NCBI GenBank assembly: GCA_963734345.1
Contig: CAVTGT010000011.1
Coordinates: 505,334-569,333 of the forward strand
DNA length: 64,000 nucleotides
Direction: 5' to 3'
DNA from: an uncultured Nitrospiraceae bacterium
GTDB lineage: Bacteria > Nitrospirota > Nitrospiria > Nitrospirales > UBA8639
The position numbers and the translations under genes are program-made. Shown here piece by piece: positions 3,521-20,627 of this stretch; position 1 is the stretch's first letter; each line of letters starts with the position of its first letter. A model generated the notes under the pieces. That model saw only the letters and a program-made list of their open reading frames with translations. It was not told the DNA's origin and did not search any database.

Positions 3521-3571
3521 GGAGACAACGAAGTCTTCGTGTAATTTTTGGCTCAAGGGACAATGACGTCC
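3521..3571 (+). promoter_or_regulatory. candidate ANTAR target RNA: two stem-loops with AxxGxx hexaloops
   Basis: P1 has stem 3521-3526/3533-3538 (GGAGAC/GUCUUC) and loop AACGAA. P2 has stem 3558-3561/3568-3571 (GGAC/GUCC) and loop AAUGAC. The 3' arm of P2 overlaps the 5' arm of the terminator. Confidence 0.45.
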
Positions 3572-3604
3572 TCGGTTCCACTGGGACAGAGGACGTTTTT
3601 TTTA
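3565..3604 (+). terminator. rho-independent terminator or attenuator
   Basis: Stem ACGTCCTC (3566-3573) pairs with GAGGACGT (3589-3596), followed by a T8 run that ends 3 nt before the nadE ATG. Confidence 0.6.
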
Positions 3605-3606
3605 TT

Positions 3607-5397: not shown

Positions 5398-5440
5398 GAA
5401 GGATGTGTTTCATGACCCGTATTCCGGAGAATAGCATGCG

Positions 5441-8146
5441 ATGAGCGCAGACAATTCTTTTACCTCTACGTTTTTTACAGATCTTAAGACGTCCTCATTG
5501 GGCCTTCATGTTCTTCATGAGCAACGGGAGATCCTTCGACATCGATTGATCGAAGGGGTGACCGGCGGTGAGATCACTCAAGCCTTTTCTGATTTTATGG
5601 ATGCCCTACTGATCGCGCGGTTTCGTGAGGTGATTCAACAAGGCAATGCTGGAGTACGAGCCGGATGGCAGCAGTGTTGCTTGGTGGCGATGGGAGGATA
5701 TGGACGGCGGGAATTAGCGCCGTACTCGGATATTGATGTCATGGTCTTGACCCAGGGCAATCAACCGGAAGTCGCTCAGGCGCTTTCTACAGGGGTCTTC
5801 CATCGTCTGTGGGACCTGGGTTTTCAAGTTGGCCATAGTGTCCGGTCTATTATGGAATGCCTGACGATTGCGGAAACCGATTTGCCAGTTTGCACCTCGC
5901 TGTTGGAATCTCGTTTCCTTGCCGGCAGTGCTCCGGTGTTCCAGACATTTCAGAGAAAATTTGAGCGTCGGGTCATCAAAAAAAAGTCGCAACGATTTAT
6001 TCTGGAAAAAATTGAAGAGCGCGACCGGGAATATGTCAAATTTGGCGAGAGCGTCTTTATGCTTGAACCGAATATTAAAAAGAGCAAGGGCGGACTGCGG
6101 GATGTGCACCTCCTGCAATGGATTGGCCAGGTTCGATATGGGGCGGGGACGATTCAGGAGCTATCGAATCGGGGATTGATTGCCATTCAGGATTATCAGG
6201 TGTTGCAGGAAGCGCAAGAATTTCTCTGGCGCGTTCGATGCTTTTTACATTTTGAGGCGGGACGGGCTCAAGATATTCTCACGTTTGATGATCAGGTCAG
6301 GCTCTCTGCGCAATGGGGGTTCGTGGACCATCCGCATTTGTTGGCGGTAGAGCAATTCATGCAGGTGTATTTCCGTCATACGACGGGGCTATTTGACCGA
6401 TGTCGACGGTTTCTTGATCAAGCCAAGGAAGTAGGTTGGTGGGGCCGAGTTCGACGATGGTGGCCTCCGCCCTTAATTGAAGGGTGCTTCAGTATTTTGG
6501 AAAATCGGCTGACTATTCAGCCAGATAAATTACTCGAGGTTCTGGAGAGCCCCATGTTGCTCCTCAGGTTGTTTGAGATTTCTCATCGTAGAGCGGTCTG
6601 CATCGATTCGCGCATCCTCAATGAATTGTCGCAGCATATGGGAACTATCCCCAATGAACGGTTTCATACGGAACAGGTGAGTGCGCTCTTTCGACAAATT
6701 CTTTCAAGCCCCGGCCGAATTGCACAAACTCTGGAGGCCATGCATCAGGCTAGCCTGCTGGAAAAGTTGGTGCCGGCTTTCTCCAGGGTACGGGGCCTCA
6801 TGCAGTTCAATCAATATCATAAATATACAGTGGATGAGCATAGTCTTCTCGCGGTAAGGGAAGCAGAACGTTTACAGGACCATCCCGGGATGATAGGAGA
6901 CGTCTATCGGAAAATTTCTGATAAAGACCTCTTGCATCTTGCCCTCTTGCTGCATGATTTAGGAAAGGGGCGCCCCGGGGATCATAGTGAAGTGGGTCGG
7001 GAGATTGCCCATAAAACAGCTGATCGGTTGGGATTATCTGAGAAGGAGCGGCAAGTTCTCGCCTTCCTGGTCTTTTACCACTTACAGATGTCTCATACGG
7101 CCTTCCGTCGAGACCTCAACGATCCAAAAATTATCGTAAATTTTGCCCGAAAGGTGAAGACCGTGGAGGTGTTACAGAAAATGTTTATTCTGACCATTGC
7201 TGATATATCAGCGGTTGGCCCTGAAGTGATGACGAAATGGAAAGAGGCCCTATTGGGTGAACTCTATTCCCAGACTTACAACGAACTTGTCGGTGACAAA
7301 GGCCGTGCTTATCCTGCCAATGGGGAGGAGAATCTTCAAACAGGTACTCGAGACGAACTCATCGCGATCTTACGTGAACACCGACTTGAAGGACAGATGG
7401 ATGAACCCGATTGGTCACTATGGGTGGATGCCCACCTTCAACAACTTCCTACCCGGTATGTTCAGTCGACACCGGTTGACCAAATGGCGGCATATCTCTT
7501 AGCTATTCGTTCCTTAGTTGTCAAGCCGACCCATGTGGAGGCCAGATTTAATAAGATACTAAGCGTTTCGGAGTACGTGTTGATCACACATGAACAAACC
7601 AAACCTGGTATTTTCATGCAAGTGAGTGGGGTATTAGCGGCCATGGGATTGGAAGTATTGGAAGCGCAAATTATGACACTCCAGGATGGCACGGTGTGGG
7701 ATGTGTTTTCGGTCTACGATCCCGATTATGAAGGGTCGCCACCTGCAAGCCGATTGGAAGAAGTGTCGAAGGAAATTCAAGAGGTCGTGGAAGGACGGGA
7801 ATCGGTACATCAATTATTTGAACGACGACGGCGTATGGCTTTTGGCCGCCCATTTCCCACGGGTCGGCATCCCACAGAAGTCCACATCGATCAGGAGATT
7901 TCTGATACCTTTACGGTGATTGATGTGTTCGCCGACGATAAGCAAGGGTTGCTCTTTGTGATTGCCAAAGCGCTGGTCAGTTTGGACTTATCGATTCATA
8001 TGGCAAGGATAGGCACCAGGTTAGACCAGGTGGCAGACATTTTTTATGTGACGAATCTGCAGGGAGAAAAATATTTTTCCGGTGAAGTCTGCGAACAAAT
8101 TAAACACACTCTTCACACCGCCATTGAACAATTTCTGGCTGAGTAG
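5441..8146 (+). CDS. glnD: [protein-PII] uridylyltransferase/uridylyl-removing enzyme
   Basis: Nucleotidyltransferase motif GGYGRRELAPYSDIDV, HD domain (LLLHDLGKG), C-terminal ACT-like repeats, about 900 aa. Confidence 0.9.
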   Translation: MSADNSFTSTFFTDLKTSSLGLHVLHEQREILRHRLIEGVTGGEITQAFSDFMDALLIARFREVIQQGNAGVRAGWQQCCLVAMGGYGRRELAPYSDIDVMVLTQGNQPEVAQALSTGVFHRLWDLGFQVGHSVRSIMECLTIAETDLPVCTSLLESRFLAGSAPVFQTFQRKFERRVIKKKSQRFILEKIEERDREYVKFGESVFMLEPNIKKSKGGLRDVHLLQWIGQVRYGAGTIQELSNRGLIAIQDYQVLQEAQEFLWRVRCFLHFEAGRAQDILTFDDQVRLSAQWGFVDHPHLLAVEQFMQVYFRHTTGLFDRCRRFLDQAKEVGWWGRVRRWWPPPLIEGCFSILENRLTIQPDKLLEVLESPMLLLRLFEISHRRAVCIDSRILNELSQHMGTIPNERFHTEQVSALFRQILSSPGRIAQTLEAMHQASLLEKLVPAFSRVRGLMQFNQYHKYTVDEHSLLAVREAERLQDHPGMIGDVYRKISDKDLLHLALLLHDLGKGRPGDHSEVGREIAHKTADRLGLSEKERQVLAFLVFYHLQMSHTAFRRDLNDPKIIVNFARKVKTVEVLQKMFILTIADISAVGPEVMTKWKEALLGELYSQTYNELVGDKGRAYPANGEENLQTGTRDELIAILREHRLEGQMDEPDWSLWVDAHLQQLPTRYVQSTPVDQMAAYLLAIRSLVVKPTHVEARFNKILSVSEYVLITHEQTKPGIFMQVSGVLAAMGLEVLEAQIMTLQDGTVWDVFSVYDPDYEGSPPASRLEEVSKEIQEVVEGRESVHQLFERRRRMAFGRPFPTGRHPTEVHIDQEISDTFTVIDVFADDKQGLLFVIAKALVSLDLSIHMARIGTRLDQVADIFYVTNLQGEKYFSGEVCEQIKHTLHTAIEQFLAE

Positions 8147-9074: not shown

Positions 9075-10193
9075 TTAGTTATTGATGAGCGGGTTGGAAT
9101 TTAAAAGGATTTGGGAGTGTTCACCATGAGGAGAGGAAAAAACCATTCTTCCAGTATTAGTCTGCATGAAGCGAGTTACCACGACTTCGATTGCTTGGCC
9201 GACTAGTGTGGCACCATGGTCGACTACGACCATAGTGCCATCGTCCAGATGTGCAATTCCTTGGCCTTGTCCCTGGCCCTCTTTATGAATAAATACGCGA
9301 ATCGTTTCACCAGGCAACACCAAAGGCCGTAATTGGTAAGTGAGGTCGTTCACGTTGAGAGAGAGCACTCCTTGCAGTGATGCAATTTTTGCCAGATTCC
9401 AATCATTGGTCACGATTTTTGCCTCACGGTTTTTGGCTATTGCGATCAGTTGATGGTCAACCGCCGATATGGCCGGATCCCAATCATCGATCACTTGCAC
9501 GCCCACATTCGGCAGTTGTTGCAGTTGGGATAAAATTTCCAAACCGCGCTTGCCTTTGTTTCGCTTAGAAAAATGTCCGGAGTCGGCTAATGCTTGGAGT
9601 TCATGTAAAATTCCCTGAGGAACGATAAAGGGACCTTCCAAAAAGCCCGTCGCGCAGAGAGGCAGGACACGTCCATCAATAATGGCGCTGGAATCTAATA
9701 ATTTTTGAACATTGTTTGTTGGGGATGGCGAAATGTGAGGAGAGGAATCTAAAGGTAATTCGGTGATTTGGGAATGTGAAAAAGTTTGGCAGATGTGAAT
9801 GCCAACTACCATCCCAATGTAGGGACAGAGAAGAAGTACCGGAAGCATGATCCAGGGATTGAAAAAAGAATACGAAGGAAGTCCCAACCCCATTCCCAGA
9901 ATCAACAGTCCGGTTCCCGCTATCCCCACGATGATGCCAAGACTCCCGCCAACGATGGTTGAGCGGCCGCATGCCATAAGTTGGGTTTCTATCCATAGAC
10001 CCGCGCACCCAATTGCTAACCCAATTGTTCCCCATAGGATAATATCCGGGATAAGGCTTGGCCACTGGAAGGGAGCATGGCCGAGACCTGCATAGAGCCC
10101 CGCGATCATACAGAAGACGAGATAGAGCAGTTTGGACTTGTGAAGAATAGGATAGGTCGGAAATAGTGAAGAAGTGGAAAATGATGCAACCAT
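9075..10193 (-). CDS. membrane-anchored PIN and TRAM domain protein (YacL-like)
   Basis: N-terminal TM helices, a PIN-like segment (LLDSSAIIDGRV..) and a C-terminal TRAM-like segment (GETIRVFIHKEGQG..GIAHLDDGTMVVV). Confidence 0.8.
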   Translation of the reverse strand: MVASFSTSSLFPTYPILHKSKLLYLVFCMIAGLYAGLGHAPFQWPSLIPDIILWGTIGLAIGCAGLWIETQLMACGRSTIVGGSLGIIVGIAGTGLLILGMGLGLPSYSFFNPWIMLPVLLLCPYIGMVVGIHICQTFSHSQITELPLDSSPHISPSPTNNVQKLLDSSAIIDGRVLPLCATGFLEGPFIVPQGILHELQALADSGHFSKRNKGKRGLEILSQLQQLPNVGVQVIDDWDPAISAVDHQLIAIAKNREAKIVTNDWNLAKIASLQGVLSLNVNDLTYQLRPLVLPGETIRVFIHKEGQGQGQGIAHLDDGTMVVVDHGATLVGQAIEVVVTRFMQTNTGRMVFSSPHGEHSQILLNSNPLINN

Positions 10194-10434: not shown

Positions 10435-10980
10435 TCACTTCATTGTGTATGTTCCTGTTGGAGTTTCTGCTTCAGATCGTTGGGAAGAGATATGATCGGA
10501 GTTGAGCATTGACTCGGGATCTTCTTGAGTGGATCTCTGGCAGACATGACTTTCTGCGACTTCCAGGACGGTGGCGATTCCGCGAAGATTCAAATCATGG
10601 ACCAGACGAAATTGAAGACGGCTGTGTTGGTCAAAAAATAATGTTTCGCATCGATGGGAGGGTAAGGAGCGAGAAAGGCGTAGAGAGCGGCCTAATCGTC
10701 CGAGTGGGTCTGCTAGAAGTGGAAAACAAAATTCATGAGGAGGACGAACCCACGATTGCCCAAACCCATGTTCATCATGCACCAAGACGGCCAATACAAC
10801 CCCGCACTCATGAAATCGATTGACTTGCGGATCTAACAACCAAGCCTCGGGTTCGGGTAATGAAGGAAGGCAACACAACACCAATTGGTTTCCTTGAAAT
10901 GCAGTTAAGGGAAGATAGGTCATTCTGCCGTTCAGCAAGCATGGGACCCTCCATAGGGGTGCGTGTGTTCCGATTTTCAT
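10435..10980 (-). CDS. thioredoxin-fold / peroxiredoxin-like protein with an atypical active site
   Basis: AhpC/TSA-like layout (..LTAFQGNQLVLCCLPSL..), but the usual FTFVCPTE peroxidatic motif is replaced by SLPEPEA. Confidence 0.5.
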   Translation of the reverse strand: MKIGTHAPLWRVPCLLNGRMTYLPLTAFQGNQLVLCCLPSLPEPEAWLLDPQVNRFHECGVVLAVLVHDEHGFGQSWVRPPHEFCFPLLADPLGRLGRSLRLSRSLPSHRCETLFFDQHSRLQFRLVHDLNLRGIATVLEVAESHVCQRSTQEDPESMLNSDHISSQRSEAETPTGTYTMK

Positions 10981-11426
10981 AATCCGGGCCTCCTTGATAT
11001 TTCTGTTAAATTTCCTCTGTGATTAAGCGAATCGTCTACTCTGATTCCCATCGTGTATTAGTTTGTTAAATCTGTAGATTTTTTGGAAATATGTTGGTAA
11101 TTCAATGATAATTCAAGGAATTGAATCCAGTTTAATATGAATTTGAAACCTATTATCAATATCATATTAAGAGTTGTGAGCCTTTGTCAATACTTAAAAT
11201 TTCTCAGTGCTCAGAATAGTTTTTAGCGAGTTCGACGTTGTTAATAAAGGTCGGCTAGTGATGAATAGTAGGAGGAACCAGATAGGTGATGGAGATAAAG
11301 AATCTGGGGGAAGCGACCCTCAAAAAAATGAGCGTGACCGGGAATGGTTATATTGAGAGACGTATCTTCTAATCTGTGAAAGACAGCCTTTTAAAAAATG
11401 ACGCTGGGGCCTTATTCAAATGGGGA

Positions 11427-11458
11427 GAGCCCACGGTGATTCAAGACACCGTGGGCTC
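11427..11458 (-). terminator. perfect 12-bp hairpin downstream of the operon's last gene
   Basis: GAGCCCACGGTG (11427-11438) pairs with CACCGTGGGCTC (11447-11458). The U tract on the minus strand is weak. Confidence 0.5.
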
Positions 11459-11527
11459 ATCGGATATAAGGCCAATTTAAGTCCCGCTGACGAGAAGAGA
11501 CTCTTGCAGGGGAAAGGATAAACTCTG

Positions 11528-13348
11528 TTACTCATAGTCTTCATTTAATGATTTCAAAAAAGCGGTTAATGAGGGAATATCTTCTTGAAGTAAGGCGATG
11601 TCTTTGAGTCGAGAATCACCATTCCGAAGTTGCCCATTTCTGGCTAAATCGGAATTTGTGATGTAACCGTTGATCACGCCTTCAAGGGTATCGGCAATTC
11701 CGGCATGACTATATGGCGCCGAATGGCTCAAATCGCGAAGACCGGGAGTTTTAAAAGCGGCAATCGCCCTTGGTAAGAGCCGTTCAGGCCGGCACGCCCG
11801 GAATCCACGAAATACGCCAAAGTGTTCGCTCAGGGCGTCTTCGCAAAGAGTTTCCCAAATGGACAGTTGAGATGAGAGGTAATCGGGGTTCCAGAAAATA
11901 TTCCAGACCCCGAGATCGGTCAATTGCGAGTTATCCGCTATGGGAATGGACCGGAAGATTTCTTGGGCATAGGGATGTTGTGCGGTAGCCGGGAGGAATG
12001 CCTCAGGGTTCATATTTCGTTCTACCAGCCCGGGAATATCAAGTCCGACAAAGGCCCCTGGTCCATGGATCCGATCATACTCCAATTGAGCAATTCCAGT
12101 GTTGTGAAATCGGAAATCGGTAAAATCTGGGGCGGCATGACAGGCAATGCAATTGCCGATTCCTCCTTGTGCGAGATCACCAGGTCGAAGGTGACCTTGC
12201 TTTTGGGCAAAAAAGATTTTAAGACCCTTCAATTCTTCTTCACCAAAAATAAAGGGTTGGTCGTGAAACTGAAACTTCCCGTCTTCCGTATGAGGATTGC
12301 TTTCAACAAACTGAATGGATTTTTTCGAGGATGATTTTTGACGTGTCTTGAAATGCCGTTTAAAGGATTTTGAATGATCCTTGGATTCGAGACGTTGAAT
12401 CTCTGCCAGGAGCCTCTGACTGTATGAGAGTGCGGATTCCCATTTTCCAGGTTGTTTTGGCAGATCGTTGAGTTCCAGGAAAACATCAAATGGGGATAAA
12501 TTGAAATTGCCCTCCTCATCCTGTGAAAAGACGAGGTTTTCCGTATAGGCACCGATGAGTTGGGAGACGGCCTGAAAAATCTGCTGGTCAGTTGCCTGAA
12601 TAACATCTACACGAAATTCCTCAGGCAGCAGGAATTCTTGAGGAATGGCGGGGTCGGTACCGGTCAGCAAAACGGTATAAGAAATCCCGCCGAATTCCTG
12701 CGCAAGGTTTCCGGTCCCGTTATCTTCACGAATCACTCGTGCCACATGAGCGATGGCGATAGCTTCCTCTCCAGGAAGCCATCCATAATTCCTTCCTGTC
12801 AATGTGCCTTGTACCAAATCAACCAATGACGGAAATTCCGCATCCGCATGCATGAAGAAAGCATTTCGAGGACGAGACGCATTGACGAGGGGAGGGGAAT
12901 TACGAAGCGTGACCGTCTTGCCGTCTTCCCTGGCAGGAATGGGGCTACGCCGCGCAAAATCCGTATAGGTGCGCATGCCGTAACCAGTGGTTTCAAGTTG
13001 TTCATCCACAAGATGGCAGCTCCGGCAATTCATGGATTGCCCGACAAATGGTCCCTCGGCGAATTGATCGGAGGGCAGTTTCCAGTTCACCGTTTTGTCC
13101 AAAGCAGGATCACCAAGAAGCAAGGGGTCATTGACATCCCCTCCATTATCCAAAAAGACCTTGAATAATTGGGCGAAACGAGTTTCTACAAATAATCGTT
13201 CTCCATTGGCGACTTCCGGTGGATCGGCGTCTTCTGTTTCTTGAGCAAAGACATGGGAAAGGGTCCATACGCTTCCTGAGAGAATCGTCAGCAGCGACAA
13301 AAGCATGACGGGAATAAAATGTGCGGTGCACCTTGAAACGGTACTCAT
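11528..13348 (-). CDS. di-haem cytochrome c peroxidase / MauG-family protein, enlarged (606 aa)
   Basis: Two CxxCH motifs (CRSCH, CIACH) about 290 residues apart. N-terminal signal or anchor. The start at 13348 has GGAGG 7 nt upstream. Confidence 0.8.
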   Translation of the reverse strand: MSTVSRCTAHFIPVMLLSLLTILSGSVWTLSHVFAQETEDADPPEVANGERLFVETRFAQLFKVFLDNGGDVNDPLLLGDPALDKTVNWKLPSDQFAEGPFVGQSMNCRSCHLVDEQLETTGYGMRTYTDFARRSPIPAREDGKTVTLRNSPPLVNASRPRNAFFMHADAEFPSLVDLVQGTLTGRNYGWLPGEEAIAIAHVARVIREDNGTGNLAQEFGGISYTVLLTGTDPAIPQEFLLPEEFRVDVIQATDQQIFQAVSQLIGAYTENLVFSQDEEGNFNLSPFDVFLELNDLPKQPGKWESALSYSQRLLAEIQRLESKDHSKSFKRHFKTRQKSSSKKSIQFVESNPHTEDGKFQFHDQPFIFGEEELKGLKIFFAQKQGHLRPGDLAQGGIGNCIACHAAPDFTDFRFHNTGIAQLEYDRIHGPGAFVGLDIPGLVERNMNPEAFLPATAQHPYAQEIFRSIPIADNSQLTDLGVWNIFWNPDYLSSQLSIWETLCEDALSEHFGVFRGFRACRPERLLPRAIAAFKTPGLRDLSHSAPYSHAGIADTLEGVINGYITNSDLARNGQLRNGDSRLKDIALLQEDIPSLTAFLKSLNEDYE

Positions 13349-13571
13349 GATTAAAACCTCCAGAAATAACCCTCGAATAAAAAAATGGCTCTTTGGCCTT
13401 GTGAGAAAGGACATTCTTCTGTGCCTTTCCCATTTTTCTCTTATTCCCCCTTCCACATCATGCGGGGAGGGGTGGCGGAGGATCCAGGAGAAGATCCTCC
13501 GCCTTTTAAGGCGGGCAATGAGGAGTGCCCGCCTTCAAACTGATAAGCCGATAACCCAAAGCTAACGATAT

Positions 13572-13611
13572 AAAAAAAAGAGCCCATGAACGCAAATAGC
13601 TCATGGGCTCT
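13572..13611 (-). terminator. rho-independent terminator
   Basis: Stem GAGCCCATGA pairs with TCATGGGCTC, and an A8 run on the plus strand gives a U tract on the minus strand. It lies downstream of the 13658 stop codon. Confidence 0.55.
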
Positions 13612-13657
13612 GGACGAAAAATCTCTGGCCTACAACCGATGTGTCGTGAGTCGCAGT

Positions 13658-14170
13658 TTAGTCTTCGGATTCCTCCATCATAAAGGCTGCTTTTTGCCAC
13701 CACATTTCATACATGGGGATGATAAACATAATCAAAAATCCTATAACCATCAGCAGATCGCCTGTGAGCATGGTTAAGACGAATACCGGCGACACATAGG
13801 TAATCATCCAGGGTGAAGCGAGATCGAGCGTCACACCGAGAAATGAAATCCATGTAGTCATGACCTTTAGTGTGGGACTGATCATCGTCAAATACAGCAC
13901 ATGCACCATAATCATGAACACCACCGGCATGGTGAATAAGTGAAAGTGAGTCGTCTCCGACAGTTGTCCGAAGGACATGGGTTCACCGAATGTCGCATCC
14001 GACCCTCGATAATGTTCTGCAAGACCTTTTGGACTTAATTCCGTCATGCTGTGCGCCCAGAAGAACGTAAAGACAAAACCGATGAGCATTAAAAGGAGAA
14101 ACCAGGTATACACGAGGCGAATGTGGCGGTCGGTATCACGTAAAAGAAATCGTTTATTAAAATTTCGCAT
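13658..14170 (-). CDS. 4-TM membrane protein with conserved-looking His residues
   Basis: Four hydrophobic helices carrying WAH, HFH and VH histidines. An internal ATG was chosen so the gene starts 16 nt after the upstream gene's stop codon. Confidence 0.6.
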   Translation of the reverse strand: MRNFNKRFLLRDTDRHIRLVYTWFLLLMLIGFVFTFFWAHSMTELSPKGLAEHYRGSDATFGEPMSFGQLSETTHFHLFTMPVVFMIMVHVLYLTMISPTLKVMTTWISFLGVTLDLASPWMITYVSPVFVLTMLTGDLLMVIGFLIMFIIPMYEMWWQKAAFMMEESED

Positions 14171-14186
14171 CTCATTGCGCTGTGCT

Positions 14187-14879
14187 CTAGAATCCCAATA
14201 GGGACTCAAAAAATCCTTTGTTGTTTCCGTTAGCCATATTGATGGCGCTCCTCTTACCTGATGGTTTGAGATATAGCTCTTCAACCAGCACCAGCGCTCG
14301 TTTGACACCGGCACTCATGGAGCGGACGGACATGGTGGCACCGGAAATATTGATGATGTCCCGGTTGATACGGATCGGGTGGTAGGGAGTTTTTCCTTGA
14401 AATTGGTAATTGAATCGTTTCGTTCGAACTTCACTGCCTCGGGACTCACGATACACCAAGACTTCTACGTTCAGGACTTCCCCCTGAGGGTCGACGCCCA
14501 CCATGTAGGTCATGGGTTTATGTTTCCCAATGGTATTTTGAATAAGCGCCCACCCGTCGATCTTGCCTTTGGTCTCTCCAATAAAAAAATCAAAGGTGGT
14601 TTCCGGAAAATTCCATCCGATACGTTCTTCGATGAGGTTCTTTTGTTCGGGGGAGAGAGTAAGCAATTCATTGCGGGTGTGATCAGAGTCGGGAAACATC
14701 AACTTTGCCGCTTCCTCTGGGGTCAGGTAGACGTCTTCCTGAACCATTTCCTGTGGAGTCAGATACCGCTTCAATTCCTCATCCCAGACCGGGTCATTCT
14801 GGGCATGGGCGGCGGGTTGGGGGATAAACGCCAGTAAAAGACCTCCGAAAATAGCAATGTTTAAGATTCGACGATGCAT
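14187..14879 (-). CDS. secreted FMN-binding domain protein
   Basis: Sec signal peptide (..PAAHAQ). C-terminal FMN_bind-like region with INISGATMSVRS, matching the [S/T]GAT flavinylation site (Thr182, codon 14334-14336). Confidence 0.75.
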   Translation of the reverse strand: MHRRILNIAIFGGLLLAFIPQPAAHAQNDPVWDEELKRYLTPQEMVQEDVYLTPEEAAKLMFPDSDHTRNELLTLSPEQKNLIEERIGWNFPETTFDFFIGETKGKIDGWALIQNTIGKHKPMTYMVGVDPQGEVLNVEVLVYRESRGSEVRTKRFNYQFQGKTPYHPIRINRDIINISGATMSVRSMSAGVKRALVLVEELYLKPSGKRSAINMANGNNKGFFESLLGF

Positions 14880-15364
14880 CCTTCCGCCTCAAGGTTCTTG
14901 GTTAAAGTGTTCAAAATTTGATTCATCTGTTCTTGGGAGGGTTCCACCGGAGCCCAAGCGTATATTCTGCCTCCTCCACGAAATCCCCAATGTTGTCGGC
15001 GTTCGGCGAGTTGAAGCCGGATCACGTTCGCTTCGACAGAGGTGAGGGTTAAGCTGAGCTGTGAGCGCTCTTTATTAGCCAACCCTTCACGGCGCATCAG
15101 CCCGTATTCGGGGCCTTGCACGTACTGAACCCGCCATCCCGTTTCGATGAGCCCCTTGGTTTTATCCTTAACGGTCAAGGGATAGGCATTGAGAGCTTGC
15201 AGGGAAGAATTCCAAACCGAATCCATCGGACAAGCCAGATATCGTTCGGCCGTCAGATCGGCGCCTGTTAACGAAGCGCATCCCATTTGAAAGGCACTAC
15301 AGATGATTATGGCAACCCAAGTATTGATCTGCTGAGAATGAGAAGAAACCGGATACAACTTCAT
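14861..15364 (-). CDS. lipoprotein, unknown function
   Basis: Lipobox FQMGC after a hydrophobic segment. Internal ATG start at MKLYPV. Overlaps the downstream gene by 19 nt, consistent with an operon. Confidence 0.55.
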   Translation of the reverse strand: MKLYPVSSHSQQINTWVAIIICSAFQMGCASLTGADLTAERYLACPMDSVWNSSLQALNAYPLTVKDKTKGLIETGWRVQYVQGPEYGLMRREGLANKERSQLSLTLTSVEANVIRLQLAERRQHWGFRGGGRIYAWAPVEPSQEQMNQILNTLTKNLEAEGCIVES

Positions 15365-15585
15365 AAAAAAATAACGAAAATGATAACCGTTATATTTGAA
15401 AATGATTCTTATTATGATAATGAAAACGCGCATATCCTACCACCGGCTAATGTATGGGGTCAACAGGCGCCGAACTGAAAATTTCCATCAGGATTAGGCT
15501 GCCTGATGGGCACTAACAAGAATTGTAAAGGGGGAAGGGAAAGGCCCTTTATGAGGCCCTTTCCCTTCTCGATGCGGGAGGTGGC

Positions 15586-16974
15586 CTAGAAATACGTCGC
15601 CCAGGAGGCCAGGAAGGCCGTATCGTGTATCCGTTGCCCGTTCGCTTGTCCAACCGGTGTGTACTGGAAGTCGGTTTTAAAGACGGTATCTTCTGTGGGA
15701 CGGAAGTTCAGGCCAAAGGTCCAACGTTGCCACTCCCCTAGTTTCCCCGCTTCTGTGTTGTCATCTAAATCCTGTCCCAGATTCATTTGTTCCCATCTTG
15801 CCACCGCGGTGAAGGTGGAAACTTCCTGTTTGAAGAATGTCGGGGCCATGTTGCTCATCCATTGGGGAAGAAAATGATAATTCAACTGGAGATAATACCC
15901 TTGCATTCTCCGTGGGTTGCCATTTGGAGTGCCGTTTTGATTGATATTATTATCCCGGATATAGGCCCAAGCGCTTTCTCCGATGAATTCAAACGGGCCA
16001 CGTATGAATGTCCAATCCAAAGCCCAAATGGCTATAGGACGTTTACTCGCTGAGTCATACGACCCGAATAATCCCGACCCACCGATTTCCACTCCCAAAA
16101 TTGGACTAAACGCGACACGTCCCATGACGGATTTACCATTATTATTGTCAAAGCTCGTATTGTCTGATCTCGCACTGCGTATTCCGTTGGTTTGGTTGAT
16201 ATTGGAAGTGTTATTAGGATTGCCATTTCCTCCAAAGGCATTGGTGAATCCACTTGTCACGTAGAATTCGTAATCTAACTTCGAGAGGGCGGTGGGGTAA
16301 AAGGTTCCGTAACTCCCGATTCCCGGTTGGTGAAGAGTTGATGGGATGATCCGTTGGGCCACGAGAGGGCGTTCGGTGAGATCACGGAGTGGTGCGTCAT
16401 GCAGGAGGTTGAATTTTCCAAGGGGAGCGAGGATGATGCCGGCACGCAAATTAATAGGTTCTTGAATCAGATAATCGATGGTGGCAAATTCCACTTTAAT
16501 GTCATTTGTTCCATGCTCAAATTCAATCTCCGCGGCGAATTTGACCCGGTCACTGACATCTCCGTATATGAAGGGCACTAACCGGTGTTGATCGAAAAAG
16601 CTGTTGCCCTGGTTTTTCCGATTGAAATATTCGATATCCATGTAGCCGCCGACGATGGCCTTAGGGGAGGAGACGAATGGTCTGGCATAGATTAGGCCAC
16701 CTGACCCTTGCATGGTTGAGTTAAATTTTTTGTTCGGCGTACGTGGTTGTGATAATTCTCCCAAGGTTTCCTTGGCCGGTTCGCCGGGACGTTGAGTGGG
16801 TGGGGCCGCGAAAGTCGGCGGCGCTTGACGTTGTTGGTTGAGATACTCCTCCACTGCTTTTTGGACTGCTTCCTGTTGCGCGGGAGTCAATTCTTCTGCT
16901 CCTGGTGCGGAGAAGGCTGGAACAGTTGAAAAGAGACAGAGGGCCACAAGGACACCGATGGCAGGCTTCTTCAT
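15586..16974 (-). CDS. outer-membrane beta-barrel porin
   Basis: Signal peptide (..VPAFSAPGA), alternating beta-strand pattern, C-terminal aromatic residue (..SWATYF). Confidence 0.7.
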   Translation of the reverse strand: MKKPAIGVLVALCLFSTVPAFSAPGAEELTPAQQEAVQKAVEEYLNQQRQAPPTFAAPPTQRPGEPAKETLGELSQPRTPNKKFNSTMQGSGGLIYARPFVSSPKAIVGGYMDIEYFNRKNQGNSFFDQHRLVPFIYGDVSDRVKFAAEIEFEHGTNDIKVEFATIDYLIQEPINLRAGIILAPLGKFNLLHDAPLRDLTERPLVAQRIIPSTLHQPGIGSYGTFYPTALSKLDYEFYVTSGFTNAFGGNGNPNNTSNINQTNGIRSARSDNTSFDNNNGKSVMGRVAFSPILGVEIGGSGLFGSYDSASKRPIAIWALDWTFIRGPFEFIGESAWAYIRDNNINQNGTPNGNPRRMQGYYLQLNYHFLPQWMSNMAPTFFKQEVSTFTAVARWEQMNLGQDLDDNTEAGKLGEWQRWTFGLNFRPTEDTVFKTDFQYTPVGQANGQRIHDTAFLASWATYF

Positions 16975-17271
16975 GAATGAAAACCTCCTTAATTAAGGCT
17001 GGGACGCGGAGGTCCTCAGGGAAAGGGTAGGGGACTCGGGGTCCTCAATGGAAGGGACTCACGATTGACCGTGAATCAGAACGCAACACATCACATTTTT
17101 CAGTCGCACACTCGATTGAAAGTGTTCCCCCGTCATTAGGAGCTCAATGAGGTAAAGGGAATGAAAACAAGACGCTTGCAGCGTTTGCATTTCAGTTCCA
17201 CTCCATCTTTTTTTAAGATGGCCATCAGTTGCCCGCAATGGCAGCGCATCTCGGAGGTGGTTGCGCATAAC

Positions 17272-17335
17272 GATAATATTTCTGTTTCTCGAATCATCTT
17301 GATGATGAATGTAATTATTGTTAATTTTGAAATTG
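17272..17335. promoter_or_regulatory. AT-rich Fur-box-like hexamer repeats in a divergent promoter region
   Basis: GATAATATTTCTG.., GAATCATCTTGATGATGAAT and AATGTAATTATTGTTAAT resemble GATAAT-type hexamers. Confidence 0.25.
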
Positions 17336-17449
17336 AGAGCTGTTCTTAATACCGCATCCGTTTGGCGTCTGTCAAGTTGAGACCTGCTTTACTTCCAGGT
17401 CCATTTATGCCGTGCGAGTTTGCGGGAAATGGAGGGGTATAATGGCTGA

Positions 17450-18061
17450 ATGCCCATGCTGAATGTTCTTGCTTGCCGTATTGCATTTCTAGGAATTTTT
17501 GTTGGAATGAGTATGGGATGCACGCATCAGCTCCCCTCTCATCCCGCTCAGGAAGACCTCAGAGAGCCCCTGGTTTTCGGGCATATCGAAGTGTGGCAGG
17601 AAGAGCCGTCAGGAAGGATTTTCCTCCCAGAATTGGCTTCTCTTGAATTCATCTCCAAGGATGGTCAAAGGCGTTATCGTGTGGATATTGGGGCGGCTTC
17701 CTCCTATTTCTTTTTTTCATTGGACCCGGGACAGTATCAGGTGACCCGAATAATAGTTCAGGAAGGCGGGTTTCGATCCAGTGCGGAAGTTCCGCTAACC
17801 TTTGAAGTGCCGGACCAGGGAGTGGTGTATCTTGGCGGTTGGCGGTTCCAGATTGATCCTCCGAATTATACAAGGGAGTTAGAAGTAACAATTGTCTCCG
17901 AACCAGTAAAAGCCATTGTAGGAATGACGGTTCGTTATCCGACTCTTTCTTCCAATGTGGTTGTGTCCTCCCTGGCGGAACCTCCTTTGTTACGGGCACG
18001 ATTGTATGAAATGACTCCATACCCCCGGGTCCGATGGTTCAATCGACATAATTCCACATAA
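17450..18061 (+). CDS. lipoprotein, unknown function
   Basis: Signal peptide with lipobox MSMGC. No motif recognised. Confidence 0.6.
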   Translation: MPMLNVLACRIAFLGIFVGMSMGCTHQLPSHPAQEDLREPLVFGHIEVWQEEPSGRIFLPELASLEFISKDGQRRYRVDIGAASSYFFFSLDPGQYQVTRIIVQEGGFRSSAEVPLTFEVPDQGVVYLGGWRFQIDPPNYTRELEVTIVSEPVKAIVGMTVRYPTLSSNVVVSSLAEPPLLRARLYEMTPYPRVRWFNRHNST

Positions 18062-18125
18062 ATTCTTTCAAGCGGATTCGGGCTATTCTTAAACAAGCGT
18101 AATTAAGGAGGATAGGAGATTAATC

Positions 18126-19154
18126 ATGTGGAGAAGGAAGAAGATTGTCCTTGGACTCTGCTTTTTGAGTCTCCTCCTGGCGGGTTGTCAGGGAACGCCT
18201 CATTTGGTGAAGCGCAGTCAGATGCTCATGGGGACCGTGGTATTTGTGACGGCGGTTGGAGCAGATGAATCGACTGCGCAGCAGGCTGCCAAGGCTGGTC
18301 TTGATGAAATCCGGCGGTTGGAAGAACTGCTCAGTACCTGGATTCCAACCAGTGAATTATCGAAGGTCAATGCTGCAGCGGGACGGGAATCGATCCGGGT
18401 CAGTCAAGAAACGTTTGAAGTGTTGGAGCGTTCACTGGACATGGCCAAACTTACAAACGGAGGGTTTAATATCGCTGTTGGTCCAGCGGTGAAGGCATGG
18501 GATGCGAGTGAGGAAGGACATGTTCCACCACAGGATGATCTGGACAGGCTTCGCCCTCAGATCGACTTATCCCAAATTCTACTTGATGATAAAAACCGAA
18601 CCGTTTGGTTGAGACTGGCGGGTATGCAAATTGATGTGGGAGGGATCGGGAAAGGATATGCGGCTGACCTGGCTGGCAGGGTGATGCAGGCTTCAGGAGC
18701 GACAGCAGGCGTGCTTGCACTGTCCGGAGATATTAAAACGTTCGGACGCATGCCGGATCATCAGCGGTTTGTCTTTGGCATCCAGCATCCTCGTAAAGAA
18801 CAGGGCGAAATCTTAGGGCGTATCGAACTGGAAAATGAAGCGGTATCCACTGCGGGGGACTATCAACGCTATTTCATGAAGGATGGAGTTCGGTATCACC
18901 ATATCTTGGATCCGGCCACCCTTCTGCCGGCTCGAGGATGTCAAAGCGTCACGGTCATTGCCAAAGACGGTATCATGGCCGATGGGCTGGATACCGGTAT
19001 TTTTGTGATGGGGCCGGATAAAGGCATGGCGCTCATCGAGTCGTTGCCGGACGTGGAAGGAATTATTGTCGATCAAGACGGAAAGGTTTTTGTGTCAACG
19101 GGTCTTAAGGGCCGATTGAGACTCGAGGAGCCATATCCCGGTTCCCTCGAATAA
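18126..19154 (+). CDS. apbE: FAD:protein FMN transferase (ApbE family lipoprotein)
   Basis: Lipobox LLAGC. ApbE-like segments (..LMGTVV.., DVGGIGKGYAAD, YHHILDP). Confidence 0.85.
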   Translation: MWRRKKIVLGLCFLSLLLAGCQGTPHLVKRSQMLMGTVVFVTAVGADESTAQQAAKAGLDEIRRLEELLSTWIPTSELSKVNAAAGRESIRVSQETFEVLERSLDMAKLTNGGFNIAVGPAVKAWDASEEGHVPPQDDLDRLRPQIDLSQILLDDKNRTVWLRLAGMQIDVGGIGKGYAADLAGRVMQASGATAGVLALSGDIKTFGRMPDHQRFVFGIQHPRKEQGEILGRIELENEAVSTAGDYQRYFMKDGVRYHHILDPATLLPARGCQSVTVIAKDGIMADGLDTGIFVMGPDKGMALIESLPDVEGIIVDQDGKVFVSTGLKGRLRLEEPYPGSLE

Positions 19155-19213: not shown

Positions 19214-19870
19214 TTAGCTTTGTTTGTCCTTGGAATGGGGGGAGGATCCGCCGGGATGGCCTTTCGGCATCCCGCCATCTTTATATGAGTCGAGACGATC
19301 ATGCACCGTTTTCATGCGGGCACGTTGCTCGTCCGTTAAGACGGATTTTGCATCCCTCCCGGCTTTGACTGAAGCCAGATAGAGACCGGCTCGAATTTCA
19401 TAAAGATGTTTCAGCTGGGATTCGACTGCGCCCAAATCGCCTTGGTCGTTCCGTAATAATTCATGCAAATCTAAACTGACCAGTTGCATGTCGGCTTTCA
19501 TTTTAATTTTGGTTTTTTCAAAATCGGTTTTAATCGTTTGAAGTTTGGCAACCTGGTCATCGGTAATGGCCATGCCTTCTTTGAATTTCAACATGTGTTC
19601 AATAAATTCTGACGCACTTTGATGCGGACCATGTCCTGATTGGTGGGGGCTTCCTCCTTTGCCATAGCCACCGGACATGCTCGTACCATGATGAATCTGG
19701 CCATGACCATACCCTCCGGCTCCATGCGGTGACATGCTCTGTCCTGACGCGTGGTGTGCATCATCATACCCCATGGCCATCGTCATGACGGGAAATCCCA
19801 GAATCAATGACAGGACCCCGGCCATGAGGGGAATCATCTGTTTGTGGTGAATGCGGTGTCTCAGTGCCAT
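19214..19870 (-). CDS. periplasmic Spy/CpxP/ZraP-family protein, His/Gly-rich
   Basis: Signal peptide, His/Gly-rich N-terminal region, LTxxQ motif (LTDEQRARM). Confidence 0.7.
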   Translation of the reverse strand: MALRHRIHHKQMIPLMAGVLSLILGFPVMTMAMGYDDAHHASGQSMSPHGAGGYGHGQIHHGTSMSGGYGKGGSPHQSGHGPHQSASEFIEHMLKFKEGMAITDDQVAKLQTIKTDFEKTKIKMKADMQLVSLDLHELLRNDQGDLGAVESQLKHLYEIRAGLYLASVKAGRDAKSVLTDEQRARMKTVHDRLDSYKDGGMPKGHPGGSSPHSKDKQS

Positions 19871-20189: not shown

Positions 20190-20627
20190 TCACGAGGGTT
20201 TTTGGCAGTTCTCACAGAGGCCGTACAGTTCCAATTTGTGGGTTTGAATCGTAAAGCCGTTTGTTCTGGCCACCTCTTCTTGCAAATGTTCGATTTGGCA
20301 ATTTTGAAATTCGACAATTTTCCCGCAAGAGGTGCAGATGAGATGATCGTGATGTCCCTTGTGGGATACATTATCGAATTGTGTTTGTGAGCCAAAATGG
20401 CGTTCCTGGGCAAGGTCGGTTTCACAGAATAATTTGAGCGTGCGATAAATGGTGGCCAGCCCGATATGAGGGTCTTTCTTGGCGAGGATATGATATAACT
20501 GCTCGGCGGTGACATGCTCCATTTTCAGGAATGTCGTCAGAATCAACTCGCGTTGACGCGTCAGTTTGAGACTGTTTTTTGAGAGATGATGTTTAAGTGT
20601 TTCGAGTTCTTTGACGGGTTTGGGCAT
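20190..20627 (-). CDS. Fur-family metalloregulator (Fur/Zur/Nur type not resolved)
   Basis: Winged-helix N-terminus, HHDHLICTSCGKIVEF and C-terminal CENC metal sites. Confidence 0.85.
   Translation of the reverse strand: MPKPVKELETLKHHLSKNSLKLTRQRELILTTFLKMEHVTAEQLYHILAKKDPHIGLATIYRTLKLFCETDLAQERHFGSQTQFDNVSHKGHHDHLICTSCGKIVEFQNCQIEHLQEEVARTNGFTIQTHKLELYGLCENCQKPS

Follow-up and report, generated by a model that had tools for sequence, protein, structure and literature searches.

Flavinylated proteins work together with membrane cytochromes in the reduction and assimilation of iron (PMC8238504; PMC11334425), and FezC, one of the membrane cytochromes associated with flavinylation, is a homodimeric haem-b protein (PMC11334425). 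Iron-uptake clusters also include di-haem peroxidases and cupredoxins (PMC3143127, PMC11966278), and the FtrABCD model combines a cupredoxin with a membrane electron acceptor (PMC11966278). The window analysed here, a 64-kb stretch of DNA from a soil Nitrospirales bacterium, carries a set of genes for a porin, an FMN_bind protein, an ApbE and a four-transmembrane (4-TM) protein. A literature search found no paper describing this module, which agrees with its preliminary description as uncharacterised: a flavin module of the periplasm that has a porin and an ApbE of its own.

A four-part envelope module

The features of the locus are as follows.

10435..10980, minus strand: 181-aa protein, encoded behind the di-haem gene (downstream) and served by a strong promoter of its own (11190-11161, 11/12)
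11528..13348, minus strand: 606-aa di-haem c protein (bCCP/MauG/MbnH superfamily) whose two haem motifs are separated by a long insert
13013-13027 and 12137-12151, minus strand: di-haem CxxCH motifs (residues 108 and 400)
13570..13611, minus strand: intrinsic-terminator-like hairpin and T8 (hairpin 13611-13579; 13 bp, 7 GC)
13658..14170, minus strand: 4-TM inner-membrane protein, 170 aa, PF27139 Aq_1264_TM (precomputed label of its homologues)
13946-13948, minus strand: 4-TM H75, invariant (52 diverse members)
13940-13942, minus strand: 4-TM H77, invariant (same 52 members)
13901-13903, minus strand: 4-TM H90, common (conserved-residue comparison)
14187..14879, minus strand: secreted RnfG/NqrC-like FMN_bind protein, 230 aa (PF04205, 1.4e-9)
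14334..14336, minus strand: codon of Thr182, predicted FMN attachment site (motif R-D-I-I-N-I-S-G-A-T-M-S)
14861..15364, minus strand: small Nitrospirales-specific lipoprotein of 167 aa, counted from MKLYPV... (the ORF itself reaches 15433)
15376..15416, no strand assigned: two adjacent Fur-box-like sites, 4/19 mismatches each
15586..16974, minus strand: outer-membrane porin, 462 aa, Porin_O_P-like, with signal peptide and N-terminal extension
17301..17319, no strand assigned: Fur-box-like site in the porin/203-aa-lipoprotein divergent region, 5/19 mismatches
17450..18061, plus strand: 203-aa putative lipoprotein upstream of ApbE, Nitrospirales-specific
18126..19154, plus strand: ApbE FAD:protein FMN transferase, lipoprotein (LLLAGC; PF02424, 2.1e-80)
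19214..19870, minus strand: His-rich LTXXQ (Spy/ZraP-like) periplasmic protein (PF07813, 6.3e-5)
20190..20627, minus strand: Fur-family regulator (PF01475, 1.9e-35)

The five co-oriented minus-strand ORFs from porin to di-haem gene had been described as one tightly packed operon. All five are present, and two junctions are exactly as described, with an overlap of 19 nt (14861-14879) and a gap of 16 nt (14171-14186), but tight packing fails at the porin–lipoprotein junction (221 nt, or 152 nt with the long ORF) and at the 4-TM to di-haem junction (309 nt including the hairpin and T8), where the terminator sets the last gene apart.

Comparison of loci shows that the real unit is a four-part envelope module consisting of a Porin_O_P-like porin, an RnfG-like FMN_bind protein, a lipoprotein ApbE and the PF27139 4-TM protein, to which the two lipoproteins are Nitrospirales additions. 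The Nitrospirales-type set comprises 84 loci; in the 57 with full flanks, FMN_bind is found in 57/57, ApbE in 56/57 and the porin in 56/57. The corresponding figures in the distant set (33 loci with at least 2.2 kb upstream; 4-TM proteins 36-75% identical to that set's own reference and ~28-37% to the window protein) are 32/33, 32/33 and 27/33. FMN_bind directly adjoins the 4-TM gene in 57/57 and 32/33 of these loci, respectively. Gene overlaps of 4 nt are usual in the distant loci, and both an ApbE::FMN_bind fusion (L085 clade) and a 4-TM::ApbE fusion (P0315) exist. The module genes are co-inherited across distant lineages and sometimes fused. Co-conservation of the core is stronger than the sequence by itself could reveal, extending over ~140 loci and down to ~28-37% 4-TM identity to the window protein, but does not hold for the inconstant di-haem gene.

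Pfam families could be assigned to the porin, FMN_bind protein and ApbE but not to the di-haem protein. The porin matches PF07396 Porin_O_P at 2.5e-7 (30.7 bits; cut-off 20.9), which upholds its identification; distant porins also give Porin_O_P matches, weak ones, and display a charged, heptad-like N-terminal stretch that looks coiled-coil-like by eye. The identification of the small lipoprotein is confirmed by its orthologues, which have canonical lipoboxes (LSLGC, LLAGC, STVGC and others) and share a conserved core, ERYxACP..D.VW...KDK..G.IET.W. The protein diverges fast, is found by tblastn in 52/84 loci and matches DUF3576 weakly, under the cut-off. The 203-aa lipoprotein, kept beside ApbE in 52/84 loci, has no match in Pfam or the PDB. 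The LTXXQ protein is a frequent neighbour, detected in 52/84 loci.

The flavoprotein, its transferase and the 4-TM protein

The FMN_bind assignment stands on its Pfam match, and the best matches of the protein are RnfG models and RnfG structures (9eri, 7zc6). Its signal peptide, read from sequence, ends AHA/Q. The flavinylation motif is present as reported (S179-G-A-T182), but Asn does not replace the canonical Asp: Ile176 stands where that Asp belongs, three residues ahead of Ser, and Asn177 comes next. The conserved Asp is instead D174, five residues before Ser. Across 139 loci, G is present in 139/139, A in 134/139 and T in 135/139, with Asp five residues before S/T/A in 129/139 and at the canonical position (-3) in 10/139. 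According to a review, the D-to-A change in the ApbE motif has a minor effect only (PMC12052999). The protein is the presumed substrate of the ApbE, whose lipoprotein nature is borne out by a canonical LAGC lipobox and whose gene, on the opposite strand, starts 1151 nt from the porin start, matching the ~1.2 kb first given.

The 4-TM protein belongs to an uncharacterised family of 455 representative clusters, PF27139 Aq_1264_TM, for which no literature was found. Its best 120 database matches share 71-94% identity, and the named sources among them are Nitrospirota, except one labelled Ca. Binatia. A confident AF2 model (pLDDT 87.5) shows four TM helices plus one short helix in the periplasm. 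No match was found for this fold in the PDB (best E = 3) or for the sequence in the PDB and Pfam, and the protein matches none of the known flavinylation-associated membrane families. The His residues to which haem or metal binding had been attributed are conserved in part: H75 and H77 are invariant, H90 is frequent, and H41 and H52 are not conserved. Polar residues are conserved close to both faces of the inner membrane (outer side, Y54/R55/E72/H75/H77/D116; inner side, Y21/H90/K102/M156/W157). With the conserved His on a single helix, haem could be ligated only in a dimer or with the help of a ligand other than His.

In minimal operons the 4-TM protein is the sole membrane protein. It might serve as a helper of ApbE, as a small oligomeric FAD exporter or a membrane dock, rather than as an electron carrier, with the flavoprotein fed by an unlinked partner. 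The 4-TM::ApbE fusion and the overlap of the ApbE stop with the 4-TM start in distant loci are consistent with this role, and to our knowledge no route that brings FAD to the ApbE in the periplasm has been established for most Gram-negative bacteria. The Listeria case of FAD supply to ApbE is covered elsewhere (PMC9973259). We nevertheless regard a helper role as unlikely. The invariant H-x-H and the polar residues near both faces suit cofactor binding better, in Nitrospirales the 16-nt gap couples the 4-TM gene to FMN_bind, with ApbE encoded on the opposite strand, and in the loci examined the family pairs with one FMN_bind subfamily with its own motif. A helper role would also leave the operon without electron input.

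The di-haem gene

The two CxxCH motifs are 292 residues apart, as the earlier estimate of ~290 had it, and are invariant in 38 di-haem homologues. The peroxidase/MauG-like assignment is sustained by weak MauG/MbnH-related NCBIfam matches and by a profile search (MbnH 6e1c, 2e-7; BthA, 7.6e-5; MauG, 2.4e-4) that covers the C-terminal motif only; Pfam gives no match to the window protein. The gene adjoins the module in 21 of the 57 Nitrospirales-type loci with full flanks. It does so in a few distant loci too, with an orthologue immediately behind the 4-TM or porin gene in the distant loci L138, L142, L155, L163, L166 and L167. Where it is absent, unrelated genes come straight after the 4-TM gene. 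The hairpin and T8 lie 47 nt past the 4-TM stop codon, and a hairpin with a T-run lies within 160 nt of that codon in 47/84 Nitrospirales-type loci. The di-haem gene is a recurrent accessory, probably on its own transcript and outside the core operon, and not the constant member first supposed. No RNA run was found to contain the region. The downstream 181-aa gene accompanies the di-haem gene in 17 loci, and in many of these such a gene has a Fur-box-like site ~150 nt upstream; in the window its promoter overlaps such a site (11145-11163).

The di-haem protein raises the alternative of a peroxide-reducing chain, in which the 4-TM protein and flavoprotein would relay electrons from quinol to the di-haem enzyme, or to a cupredoxin as its donor, H2O2 being reduced to water under control of a PerR regulator. 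Its bCCP/MauG superfamily membership and its recurrence beside the module in distant lineages favour such a chain, as do cupredoxins, the classical donors for bacterial peroxidases. Judged by eye only, the 181-aa protein resembles a degenerate peroxiredoxin fold. The regulator scores nearly alike with the NCBIfam models for Fur and PerR, all under the cut-off; it could be PerR, and PerR boxes are similar to Fur boxes. However, the di-haem gene is missing from 36/57 Nitrospirales-type loci and from most distant ones, which keep the core four genes, the terminator isolates that gene in the window, H2O2 does not need a dedicated porin, and the recurrent neighbours are iron importers and stores rather than catalase or Ahp. 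A peroxide chain appears quite improbable.

A probable link to iron and a proposed electron route

The substrate, first left open between iron, peroxide and a small organic molecule, can be narrowed: the context points to iron, because FTR1, FbpBC-like ABC transporters, ferritin, Fur and Fur-box-like sites occur in it. These genes and cupredoxin recur as neighbours across lineages. Neighbour clustering in the 33 distant loci gives FTR1 9, cupredoxin 8, ABC_tran+TOBE_2 7, CDF 6, di-haem 5, ferritin 4 and Fur 4, and cytochrome c::FTR1 fusions adjoin the module. One locus reads FUR-FTR1-FUR-porin-FMN_bind-ApbE-4TM (L088); others carry Fer2_BFD and ferritin (L086), ferritin (L087), an FbpABC-like transporter, ExbBD and two ferritins (L001), or TonB, ExbBD, TonB-dependent receptors and hemP (L003). 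No iron transporter was found among the window's annotated ORFs. The Fur-family gene lies 1 kb past ApbE and is 88-98% identical within the window's own clade.

Every site in the window with up to 5 mismatches to the Fur-box consensus, which is that of E. coli, falls at 11.1-17.3 kb, the matches having 4-5 mismatches in a setting where AT-rich intergenic DNA inflates matches. The paired sites are flanked on one side by a promoter-like site (15463-15434, minus strand) and on the other by the start codon of the lipoprotein gene; one of the window's sites falls within the 4-TM coding sequence. In six close relatives the same porin-to-FMN_bind spacer contains a site with up to 4 mismatches. Among relatives, 31 such sites fall within 900 nt upstream of the porin, and 37/77 sites lie upstream of porin or FMN_bind, in ~9% of the sequence.

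Another substrate is conceivable, for example Cu(II) reduced for copper uptake or an anionic oxidant entering by a phosphate-type porin, the iron genes then reflecting clustering of metal homeostasis. The neighbours of the L085 clade (cupredoxin, HMA, NikR, ZnuA, ABC-3) fit metals other than iron as well, the His-rich LTXXQ/ZraP-like protein and CDF exporters are recurrent, and MbnH, which of the solved relatives is nearest to the di-haem protein, works in copper acquisition. Studied Porin_O_P relatives are anion-selective, which counts against iron. Yet independent lineages repeatedly show FTR1, ferritin, Bfd, Fur and FbpBC-like genes, and the operon has Fur-box-like sites; another substrate is highly improbable.

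Our favoured reading, tentative as a whole and put at slightly below even, is iron-regulated reduction of porin-imported Fe(III) by the flavinylated protein and the 4-TM protein, with a variable partner; here we infer both the direction of electron flow and the 4-TM cofactor. ApbE would place FMN on Thr182 of the secreted protein. The 4-TM protein, as sole membrane component, would carry electrons over the inner membrane, taking them from the quinol pool or from the cytoplasm, by way of a cofactor with His ligands. This cofactor could be a metal or haem b, the latter possibly bound by a homodimer. The electrons would pass to the flavoprotein, which would reduce Fe(III) species entering via the porin. 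The resulting Fe(II) would go to an importer. For Fe(III) importers (FTR1, FbpABC-type), a one-electron partner encoded alongside may re-oxidise the iron at the permease; this lineage-variable partner would be a cupredoxin, an FTR1-fused cytochrome c domain or a di-haem peroxidase-like protein, the last being the putative accessory in the window. A Fur-family repressor would make expression iron-regulated. Such a reduce, re-oxidise and import arrangement parallels yeast Fre-Fet3-Ftr1 and bacterial EfeUOB/FtrABCD.

Electrons could also run the other way, with porin-entering Fe(II) oxidised by the cupredoxin, cytochrome c or di-haem protein, Fe(III) loading FTR1 or FbpA, and the flavoprotein and 4-TM protein acting as a sink to quinone, the role proposed for FtrD. 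The FtrABCD model speaks for such oxidative uptake, and the commonest importers beside the module, FTR1 (some cytochrome c-fused) and FbpBC-like, handle Fe(III). It is nonetheless distinctly unlikely: covalent FMN centres are low-potential, so that electrons from a cupredoxin or cytochrome c would move uphill, and most Nitrospirales-type loci lack an adjacent cupredoxin, cytochrome c or di-haem partner. On thermodynamic grounds, low-potential FMN fits Fe(III) reduction better than the taking of electrons from Fe(II). The module is probably an undescribed route of electrons into the periplasm for iron acquisition, and the 4-TM protein is read as a new class of membrane partner in flavin-based periplasmic electron transfer for iron assimilation.

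Gene organization and conservation of the module

The porin, the FMN_bind protein, ApbE and the four-helix (4-TM) membrane protein very probably form one functional unit, as indicated by their co-inheritance, their translational coupling and two kinds of gene fusion. In the window, these genes and their closest neighbours are arranged as follows.

15586-16974, minus strand: porin (Porin_O_P, 2.5e-7, Pfam)
14861-15364 (open reading frame up to 15433), minus strand: small lipoprotein
14187-14879, minus strand: secreted FMN_bind protein (FMN_bind, 1.4e-9, Pfam)
13658-14170, minus strand: 4-TM membrane protein
11528-13348, minus strand: di-haem c protein, 606 aa
17450-18061, plus strand: putative lipoprotein, 203 aa, upstream neighbour of ApbE
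18126-19154, plus strand: ApbE (ApbE, 2.1e-80, Pfam)

The start of the small lipoprotein is placed at 15364 rather than 15433 because its orthologues are 143-164 aa long. All five same-direction minus-strand genes of the preliminary description are present (11528-16974), and the 19-nt overlap and 16-nt gap that it reported are both exact. The tight packing it ascribed to the set does not hold at every junction: 221 nt separate the porin and lipoprotein genes, and 309 nt the 4-TM and di-haem genes. The first spacer contains two Fur-box-like sites besides one promoter-like site; the second contains a 13-bp hairpin, 7 of whose pairs are GC, and then a T8 run. The porin matches Porin_O_P (PF07396) over residues 111-438 of 462 (30.7 bits, cut-off 20.9), and sequence searches of the PDB with the porin and the two lipoproteins gave no match. 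An Rfam scan of the window revealed no riboswitch or other RNA family. The region was found solely in soil DNA metagenomes; this and the names of the di-haem protein's homologues (below) identify the host as a soil Nitrospirales.

Two features lie apart from the module. A formate-tetrahydrofolate ligase reading frame of 465 aa (within 48468-50160) covers no more than positions 3 to 442 out of 556 in the Pfam model and is followed by an overlapping 145-aa frame (49723-50160) in another frame, a split that could reflect a frameshift or an assembly error. The GC content rises to 0.60 at 38001-40000, compared with about 0.50 elsewhere, over a gene for a TPR-repeat protein (38889-40772, minus strand).

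Eighty species-representative genome loci were fetched via the 4-TM protein and searched with the window proteins. The 4-TM protein is 74-95% identical across these best matches, which are labelled Nitrospirales, Nitrospirota or a synonym, except for one Nitrospinota and one MAG. Fifty-seven Nitrospirales-type loci, drawn from these 80 and two more found via the di-haem protein, are fully flanked: all 57 contain FMN_bind, 56 ApbE, 56 the porin, and only 21 the di-haem gene. Co-conservation, the check suggested for the five genes, thus stands for the porin, FMN_bind and 4-TM genes, together with ApbE, and fails for the di-haem gene. In loci devoid of the latter, the 4-TM gene is directly followed by a GlnD/NadE/GAF-ANTAR block (2179-8146 in the window) in 8 of 12 inspected cases and by an ABC/FtsX set in three; a hairpin and T-run trail the 4-TM stop codon in 47 of 84 loci. 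From the di-haem-less loci and these hairpins, the operon can be delimited as porin-lipoprotein-FMN_bind-4TM, with the lipoprotein-ApbE pair divergent and the di-haem gene an add-on. A single five-gene operon with the di-haem protein as catalytic end was rejected: a terminator and 309 nt stand before the di-haem gene, and 63% of related loci lack it.

The association extends to distant lineages. Four loci encode 4-TM proteins about 30-37% identical to that of the window, and their core genes overlap by 4 nt. Their arrangements are porin-ApbE::FMN_bind-4TM-cupredoxin (L085), FMN_bind-ApbE-4TM-porin...Bfd-ferritin (L086), the same gene order, again with ferritin (L087), and FUR-FTR1-FUR-porin-FMN_bind-ApbE-4TM (L088). 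A metagenome scan with the distant 4-TM alignment added 80 loci. In the 33 distant loci with at least 2.2 kb of upstream sequence, FMN_bind and ApbE lie on the same strand just upstream of the 4-TM gene in 32, and the porin is present in 27. One family representative (P0315) is itself a 4-TM::ApbE fusion. A few matches among the distant loci (L085-L168) are labelled Nitrospirota, Nitrospiria or Binatia, and the Pfam family takes its name from Aquifex.

The predicted flavoprotein and its putative membrane partner

The FMN_bind protein exceeds the Pfam cut-off for PF04205 (38.9 versus 22 bits, E = 1.4e-9, residues 118-196). By reading of the sequence, it carries a signal peptide ending AHA/Q and is predicted to be extracytosolic. 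The flavinylation site previously predicted, Thr182, does sit in an S179-G-A-T182 core, but the position usually held by Asp is Ile176, and the Asn assigned to it lies one residue later. The established motif is D-x-x-[S/T]-G-A-[S/T], in which a D-to-A change has been reported to have a minor effect (PMC12052999). Over 139 loci, the family motif reads R-D-I-x-N-I-[S/T/A]-G-A-T-[M/L]-S: an Asp stands five residues ahead of the S/T/A, two upstream of the canonical position, in 129 loci, and the canonical Asp occurs in just 10. ApbE lies 1.15 kb from the module in the window; among related loci, it adjoins the module in 56 of the 57 Nitrospirales-type and 32 of the 33 distant ones. Residues 190-193 of ApbE itself read S-G-A-T (VMQASGATAG), the same core as the flavinylation motif, which is probably a coincidence.

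The nearest NCBIfam model for the FMN_bind protein is RnfG, to which it aligns best and with which it shares the G-A-T site, but its score is far under the cut-off (34 versus 205 bits). In contrast to RnfG and NqrC, its signal peptide looks cleavable rather than like a membrane anchor, and its motif lacks the canonical Asp. Its gene has no neighbour encoding RnfA, B, C, D or E or NqrA, B, D, E or F. A fragment of NQR or RNF was accordingly rejected, the other subunits being absent and the scores too low.

The 4-TM family comprises 455 representative clusters in an exhaustive search, nearly all stand-alone proteins of 155-185 aa. The precomputed label PF27139 (Aq_1264_TM) is attached to all homologues at 71-94% identity and to all distant members, although the PF27139 model matched neither the window protein nor 52 members in our Pfam run. 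The window protein matches no Pfam family at E <= 0.01, and 52 diverse members share none at E <= 1, so that no known flavinylation-associated membrane family applies; those unmatched are NapH-like, MsrQ-like (PF01794), PepSY-like (PF03929/PF16357), DsbD (PF02683), NqrB/RnfD-like and DUF4405. The AF2 model, which is confident (pLDDT 87.5), shows four transmembrane helices and a short periplasmic helix (residues 47-55). A Foldseek comparison of this model with the PDB returned noise alone (best E = 3), and profile and single-sequence searches of the PDB gave no match.

Conservation is concentrated in a few residues of the 4-TM protein. G56, H75 and H77 are invariant in the 52 diverse members; in a 60-sequence set, Y21, Y54, E72, H75, F76, H77, F79, H90, T95 and W157 are invariant and R55, K102, D116, P120, W121, P152 and M156 nearly so. 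By our reading of the positive-inside rule, the N terminus would face the cytoplasm, in which case the conserved residues would fall into two clusters, near the periplasmic and cytoplasmic faces. A transmembrane path that carries electrons by way of one or two cofactors would show such a pattern. Because helix 2 bears every conserved His, haem could be bis-His ligated only in a dimer. A haem b homodimer has been proposed for FezC, the small ferrosome cytochrome (PMC11334425), and by comparison the 4-TM protein might form a similar haem-binding dimer. Alternatively, it could export FAD or serve as a dock for ApbE, functions with which the 4-TM::ApbE fusion and the gene coupling would agree; however, the invariant His residues and the linkage of 4-TM to FMN_bind in Nitrospirales speak against both.

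Surveys of flavinylation gene clusters recognize six kinds of membrane partner, namely NapH-like, MsrQ-like, PepSY-like, DsbD, Nqr/Rnf-like and DUF4405/FezC (PMC8238504; PMC11334425). With the systems that contain a membrane cytochrome (PepSY-like/FoxB, MsrQ-like, DUF4405 and FezC; Méheust et al. 2021, Huang et al. 2024), the present module shares the co-encoding of ApbE with a small membrane protein and a flavinylated protein outside the cytosol. It also shares with them the association with Fur and with genes of iron reduction and assimilation, and conserved His residues as the strongest signal in the membrane partner. The module differs in that its partner is a four-helix PF27139 protein matching none of those families and no solved fold, that the conserved His residues of this protein are confined to one helix, and that a dedicated porin belongs to the conserved set. 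Neither survey mentions the PF27139 family, a porin, a peroxidase or Nitrospira, and Nitrospira and Aquifex are absent from the accessible part of the supplementary files of PMC8238504; a literature search for Aq_1264 or PF27139 found nothing. ApbE-dependent extracytosolic electron transfer tied to iron is already known as a kind; the novelty lies in the PF27139 membrane partner, the porin as an obligatory member and the variant motif.

The di-haem protein and the accessory slot

The two CxxCH motifs of the di-haem protein (C108-H112 and C400-H404) are invariant in 38 homologues and lie 292 residues apart, in agreement with the earlier estimate of about 290. The window copy has no Pfam match, some homologues carry a precomputed PF03150 label, and NCBIfam gives weak MauG/MbnH matches. 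Like MbnH, MauG and BthA, the protein has two CxxCH motifs, and its C-terminal F-K-T-P-G-L-R-D-L...P-Y-x-H-x-G motif aligns with MbnH (6e1c), BthA (6nx0) and MauG; the profile alignment with these proteins covers only the C-terminal 40-75 residues or so. It differs from them in the 292-residue separation with its conserved insert, in leaving Pfam CCP_MauG unmatched, and in having no MbnP-, MauA/B- or precursor-type partner gene adjoining its own. The AF2 model, from a shallow alignment, is too poor for fold comparison (pLDDT 59).

Among the 119 homologues listed (53-78% identical), all named ones are from Nitrospira, Nitrospirales or Nitrospiraceae. Orthologues also occur in distant loci, directly 3' of the 4-TM gene (L155, L163, L166 and L167) or 3' of the porin (L138 and L142). 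In the L155 copy, whose whole sequence was examined, a distance of 267 residues separates the two CxxCH motifs, and the C-terminal motif is shared. The L085 clade has a cupredoxin in the slot occupied elsewhere by the di-haem gene. The slot after the module therefore holds a variable one-electron redox protein or nothing. A chain that reduces peroxide, with the di-haem protein as its last member, is disfavoured: loci without that protein keep the core, and H2O2 would not require a porin. The di-haem protein is a real associate of the module.

Several further genes accompany it. In Nitrospira sp. CR1.3 (L001, 9164-9883), an HD/HD_5-domain gene lies between the 4-TM and di-haem genes. In the window, the stretch 10435-11190 holds the gene and promoter of a 181-aa protein that matches no Pfam family and, by eye, resembles a degenerate AhpC/thioredoxin-like fold; this gene and the di-haem gene occur together in 17 related loci, in many of which a Fur-box-like site stands some 150 nt upstream. 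Downstream of the 181-aa gene lies the gene for a membrane-anchored PIN-TRAM protein (9075-10193, 372 aa), which accompanies the di-haem/181-aa block in 15 related loci.

Iron-gene neighbourhoods and proposed function

The module lies in neighbourhoods with iron or metal-homeostasis genes. In two Nitrospirales loci, these are an FbpABC-like transporter, ExbBD and two ferritins (L001), and TonB, ExbBD, two TonB-dependent receptors and hemP (L003). Clustering of neighbours in the 33 distant loci gave FTR1 in 9, cupredoxin in 8, ABC_tran+TOBE_2 in 7, CDF in 6, di-haem in 5, and ferritin and Fur in 4 each; a 550-aa two-domain, FbpBC-like permease is present in 4 of the 7 ABC_tran+TOBE_2 loci. An FTR1 permease, beside the module in 8-9 of the 33 distant loci, is not among the annotated ORFs of the window. 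Beside the flavin module of two loci (L155, 11099-13039; L138, 535-3213), FTR1 is fused to N-terminal cytochrome c domains, one (CSACH) or two (CVSCH, CAGCH), a fusion that would provide the permease with a built-in redox partner.

Past ApbE, the window encodes two more proteins with Pfam matches: one is His-rich (LTXXQ), the other a regulator of the Fur family (FUR), which could be PerR. The LTXXQ/Spy/ZraP-like periplasmic protein (19214-19870) has a long His/Gly-rich N-terminal stretch, HHASGQSMSPHGAGGYGHGQIHHG..., and its gene is kept in the vicinity of ApbE in 52 of 84 Nitrospirales-type loci, with an ABC transporter ATPase of iron type as a frequent neighbour. The protein may act in the same pathway as a metal-binding chaperone. 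All window sites with at most 5 mismatches, over 19 positions, from the E. coli Fur-box consensus GATAATGATAATCATTATC fall between 11145 and 17319.

11145-11163: Fur-box-like site upstream of the 181-aa gene, overlapping its promoter
11190-11161, minus strand: near-consensus promoter of the 181-aa gene, TTGACA-18-TATGAT, 11 of 12
15376 and 15398: two Fur-box-like sites between the promoter-like site and the lipoprotein start, 4-5 mismatches
17301: Fur-box-like site in the porin/ApbE divergent region, 4-5 mismatches
Within the 4-TM gene: Fur-box-like site

Seventy-five related loci contain 77 sites with at most 4 mismatches, of which 37 lie upstream of the porin or between porin and FMN_bind, stretches that make up about 9% of the sequence. 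As consensus matches in AT-rich spacers, these sites are supportive, short of proof.

Taken with the neighbours, iron is the probable substrate of the module. Another metal, such as copper, would fit the neighbours in the L085 clade, against which stands the breadth of the iron genes. For iron, the following path can be proposed. ApbE would flavinylate Thr182 of the FMN_bind protein, electrons would cross the inner membrane through the 4-TM protein, and the porin would admit Fe(III) species for reduction by the flavoprotein, the resulting Fe(II) being imported. Where the importer is of the FTR1 or FbpABC type, iron would be re-oxidized at the permease by a cupredoxin, a cytochrome c domain or the di-haem protein. 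Redox steps at a permease have analogues in yeast Fre-Fet3-Ftr1, EfeB of EfeUOB and FtrB of FtrABCD (PMC3143127, PMC11966278, PMC8238504). All follow a logic in which redox reactions of iron in the periplasm are tied to a permease, and several lineages pair the module with FTR1 and a cupredoxin, a cytochrome c domain or a haem peroxidase-like protein. However, the annotated window ORFs include no FTR1, EfeO/imelysin, P19 or DyP; the peroxidase is a di-haem c protein here and DyP in EfeUOB, which has no counterpart of the flavoprotein/4-TM pair; and the membrane redox partner in FtrABCD is a NapH-like polyferredoxin.

The Fe(III)-type importers beside the module would also suit an electron sink for Fe(II) oxidation, to which the low potential of FMN is opposed. 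A reductive direction of electron flow is accordingly put forward tentatively, with the balance leaning somewhat against it, and the full statement, a flavin module bringing electrons to the periplasm for reductive iron uptake, falls just short of an even call. It is less likely than not, though well conceivable, that PF27139, at 170 residues and four helices, represents a new minimal class of transmembrane electron conduit, having one or more cofactor sites of its own and folding differently from any solved membrane redox protein, that would constitute with the porin and the flavinylated RnfG-like protein a self-contained, siderophore-independent system of reductive iron uptake, near-universal in Nitrospirales nitrite oxidizers and their comammox relatives and present also in other phyla.

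Flavin-based extracytosolic electron transfer is a widespread theme, recognized recently, to which the module would add a seventh kind of membrane partner, without structural precedent. If confirmed, it would assign a function to a domain of unknown function and provide a compact two-protein redox relay of possible engineering use. The Nitrospirales and Nitrospirota that carry it govern the oxidation of nitrite in soils, wastewater plants and the oceans. Their haem- and Fe-S-rich enzymes are generally taken to imply a high iron demand. To our knowledge, little is known of how Nitrospirales nitrifiers acquire iron; confirmation of the iron link would offer a handle on the iron limitation of nitrification.
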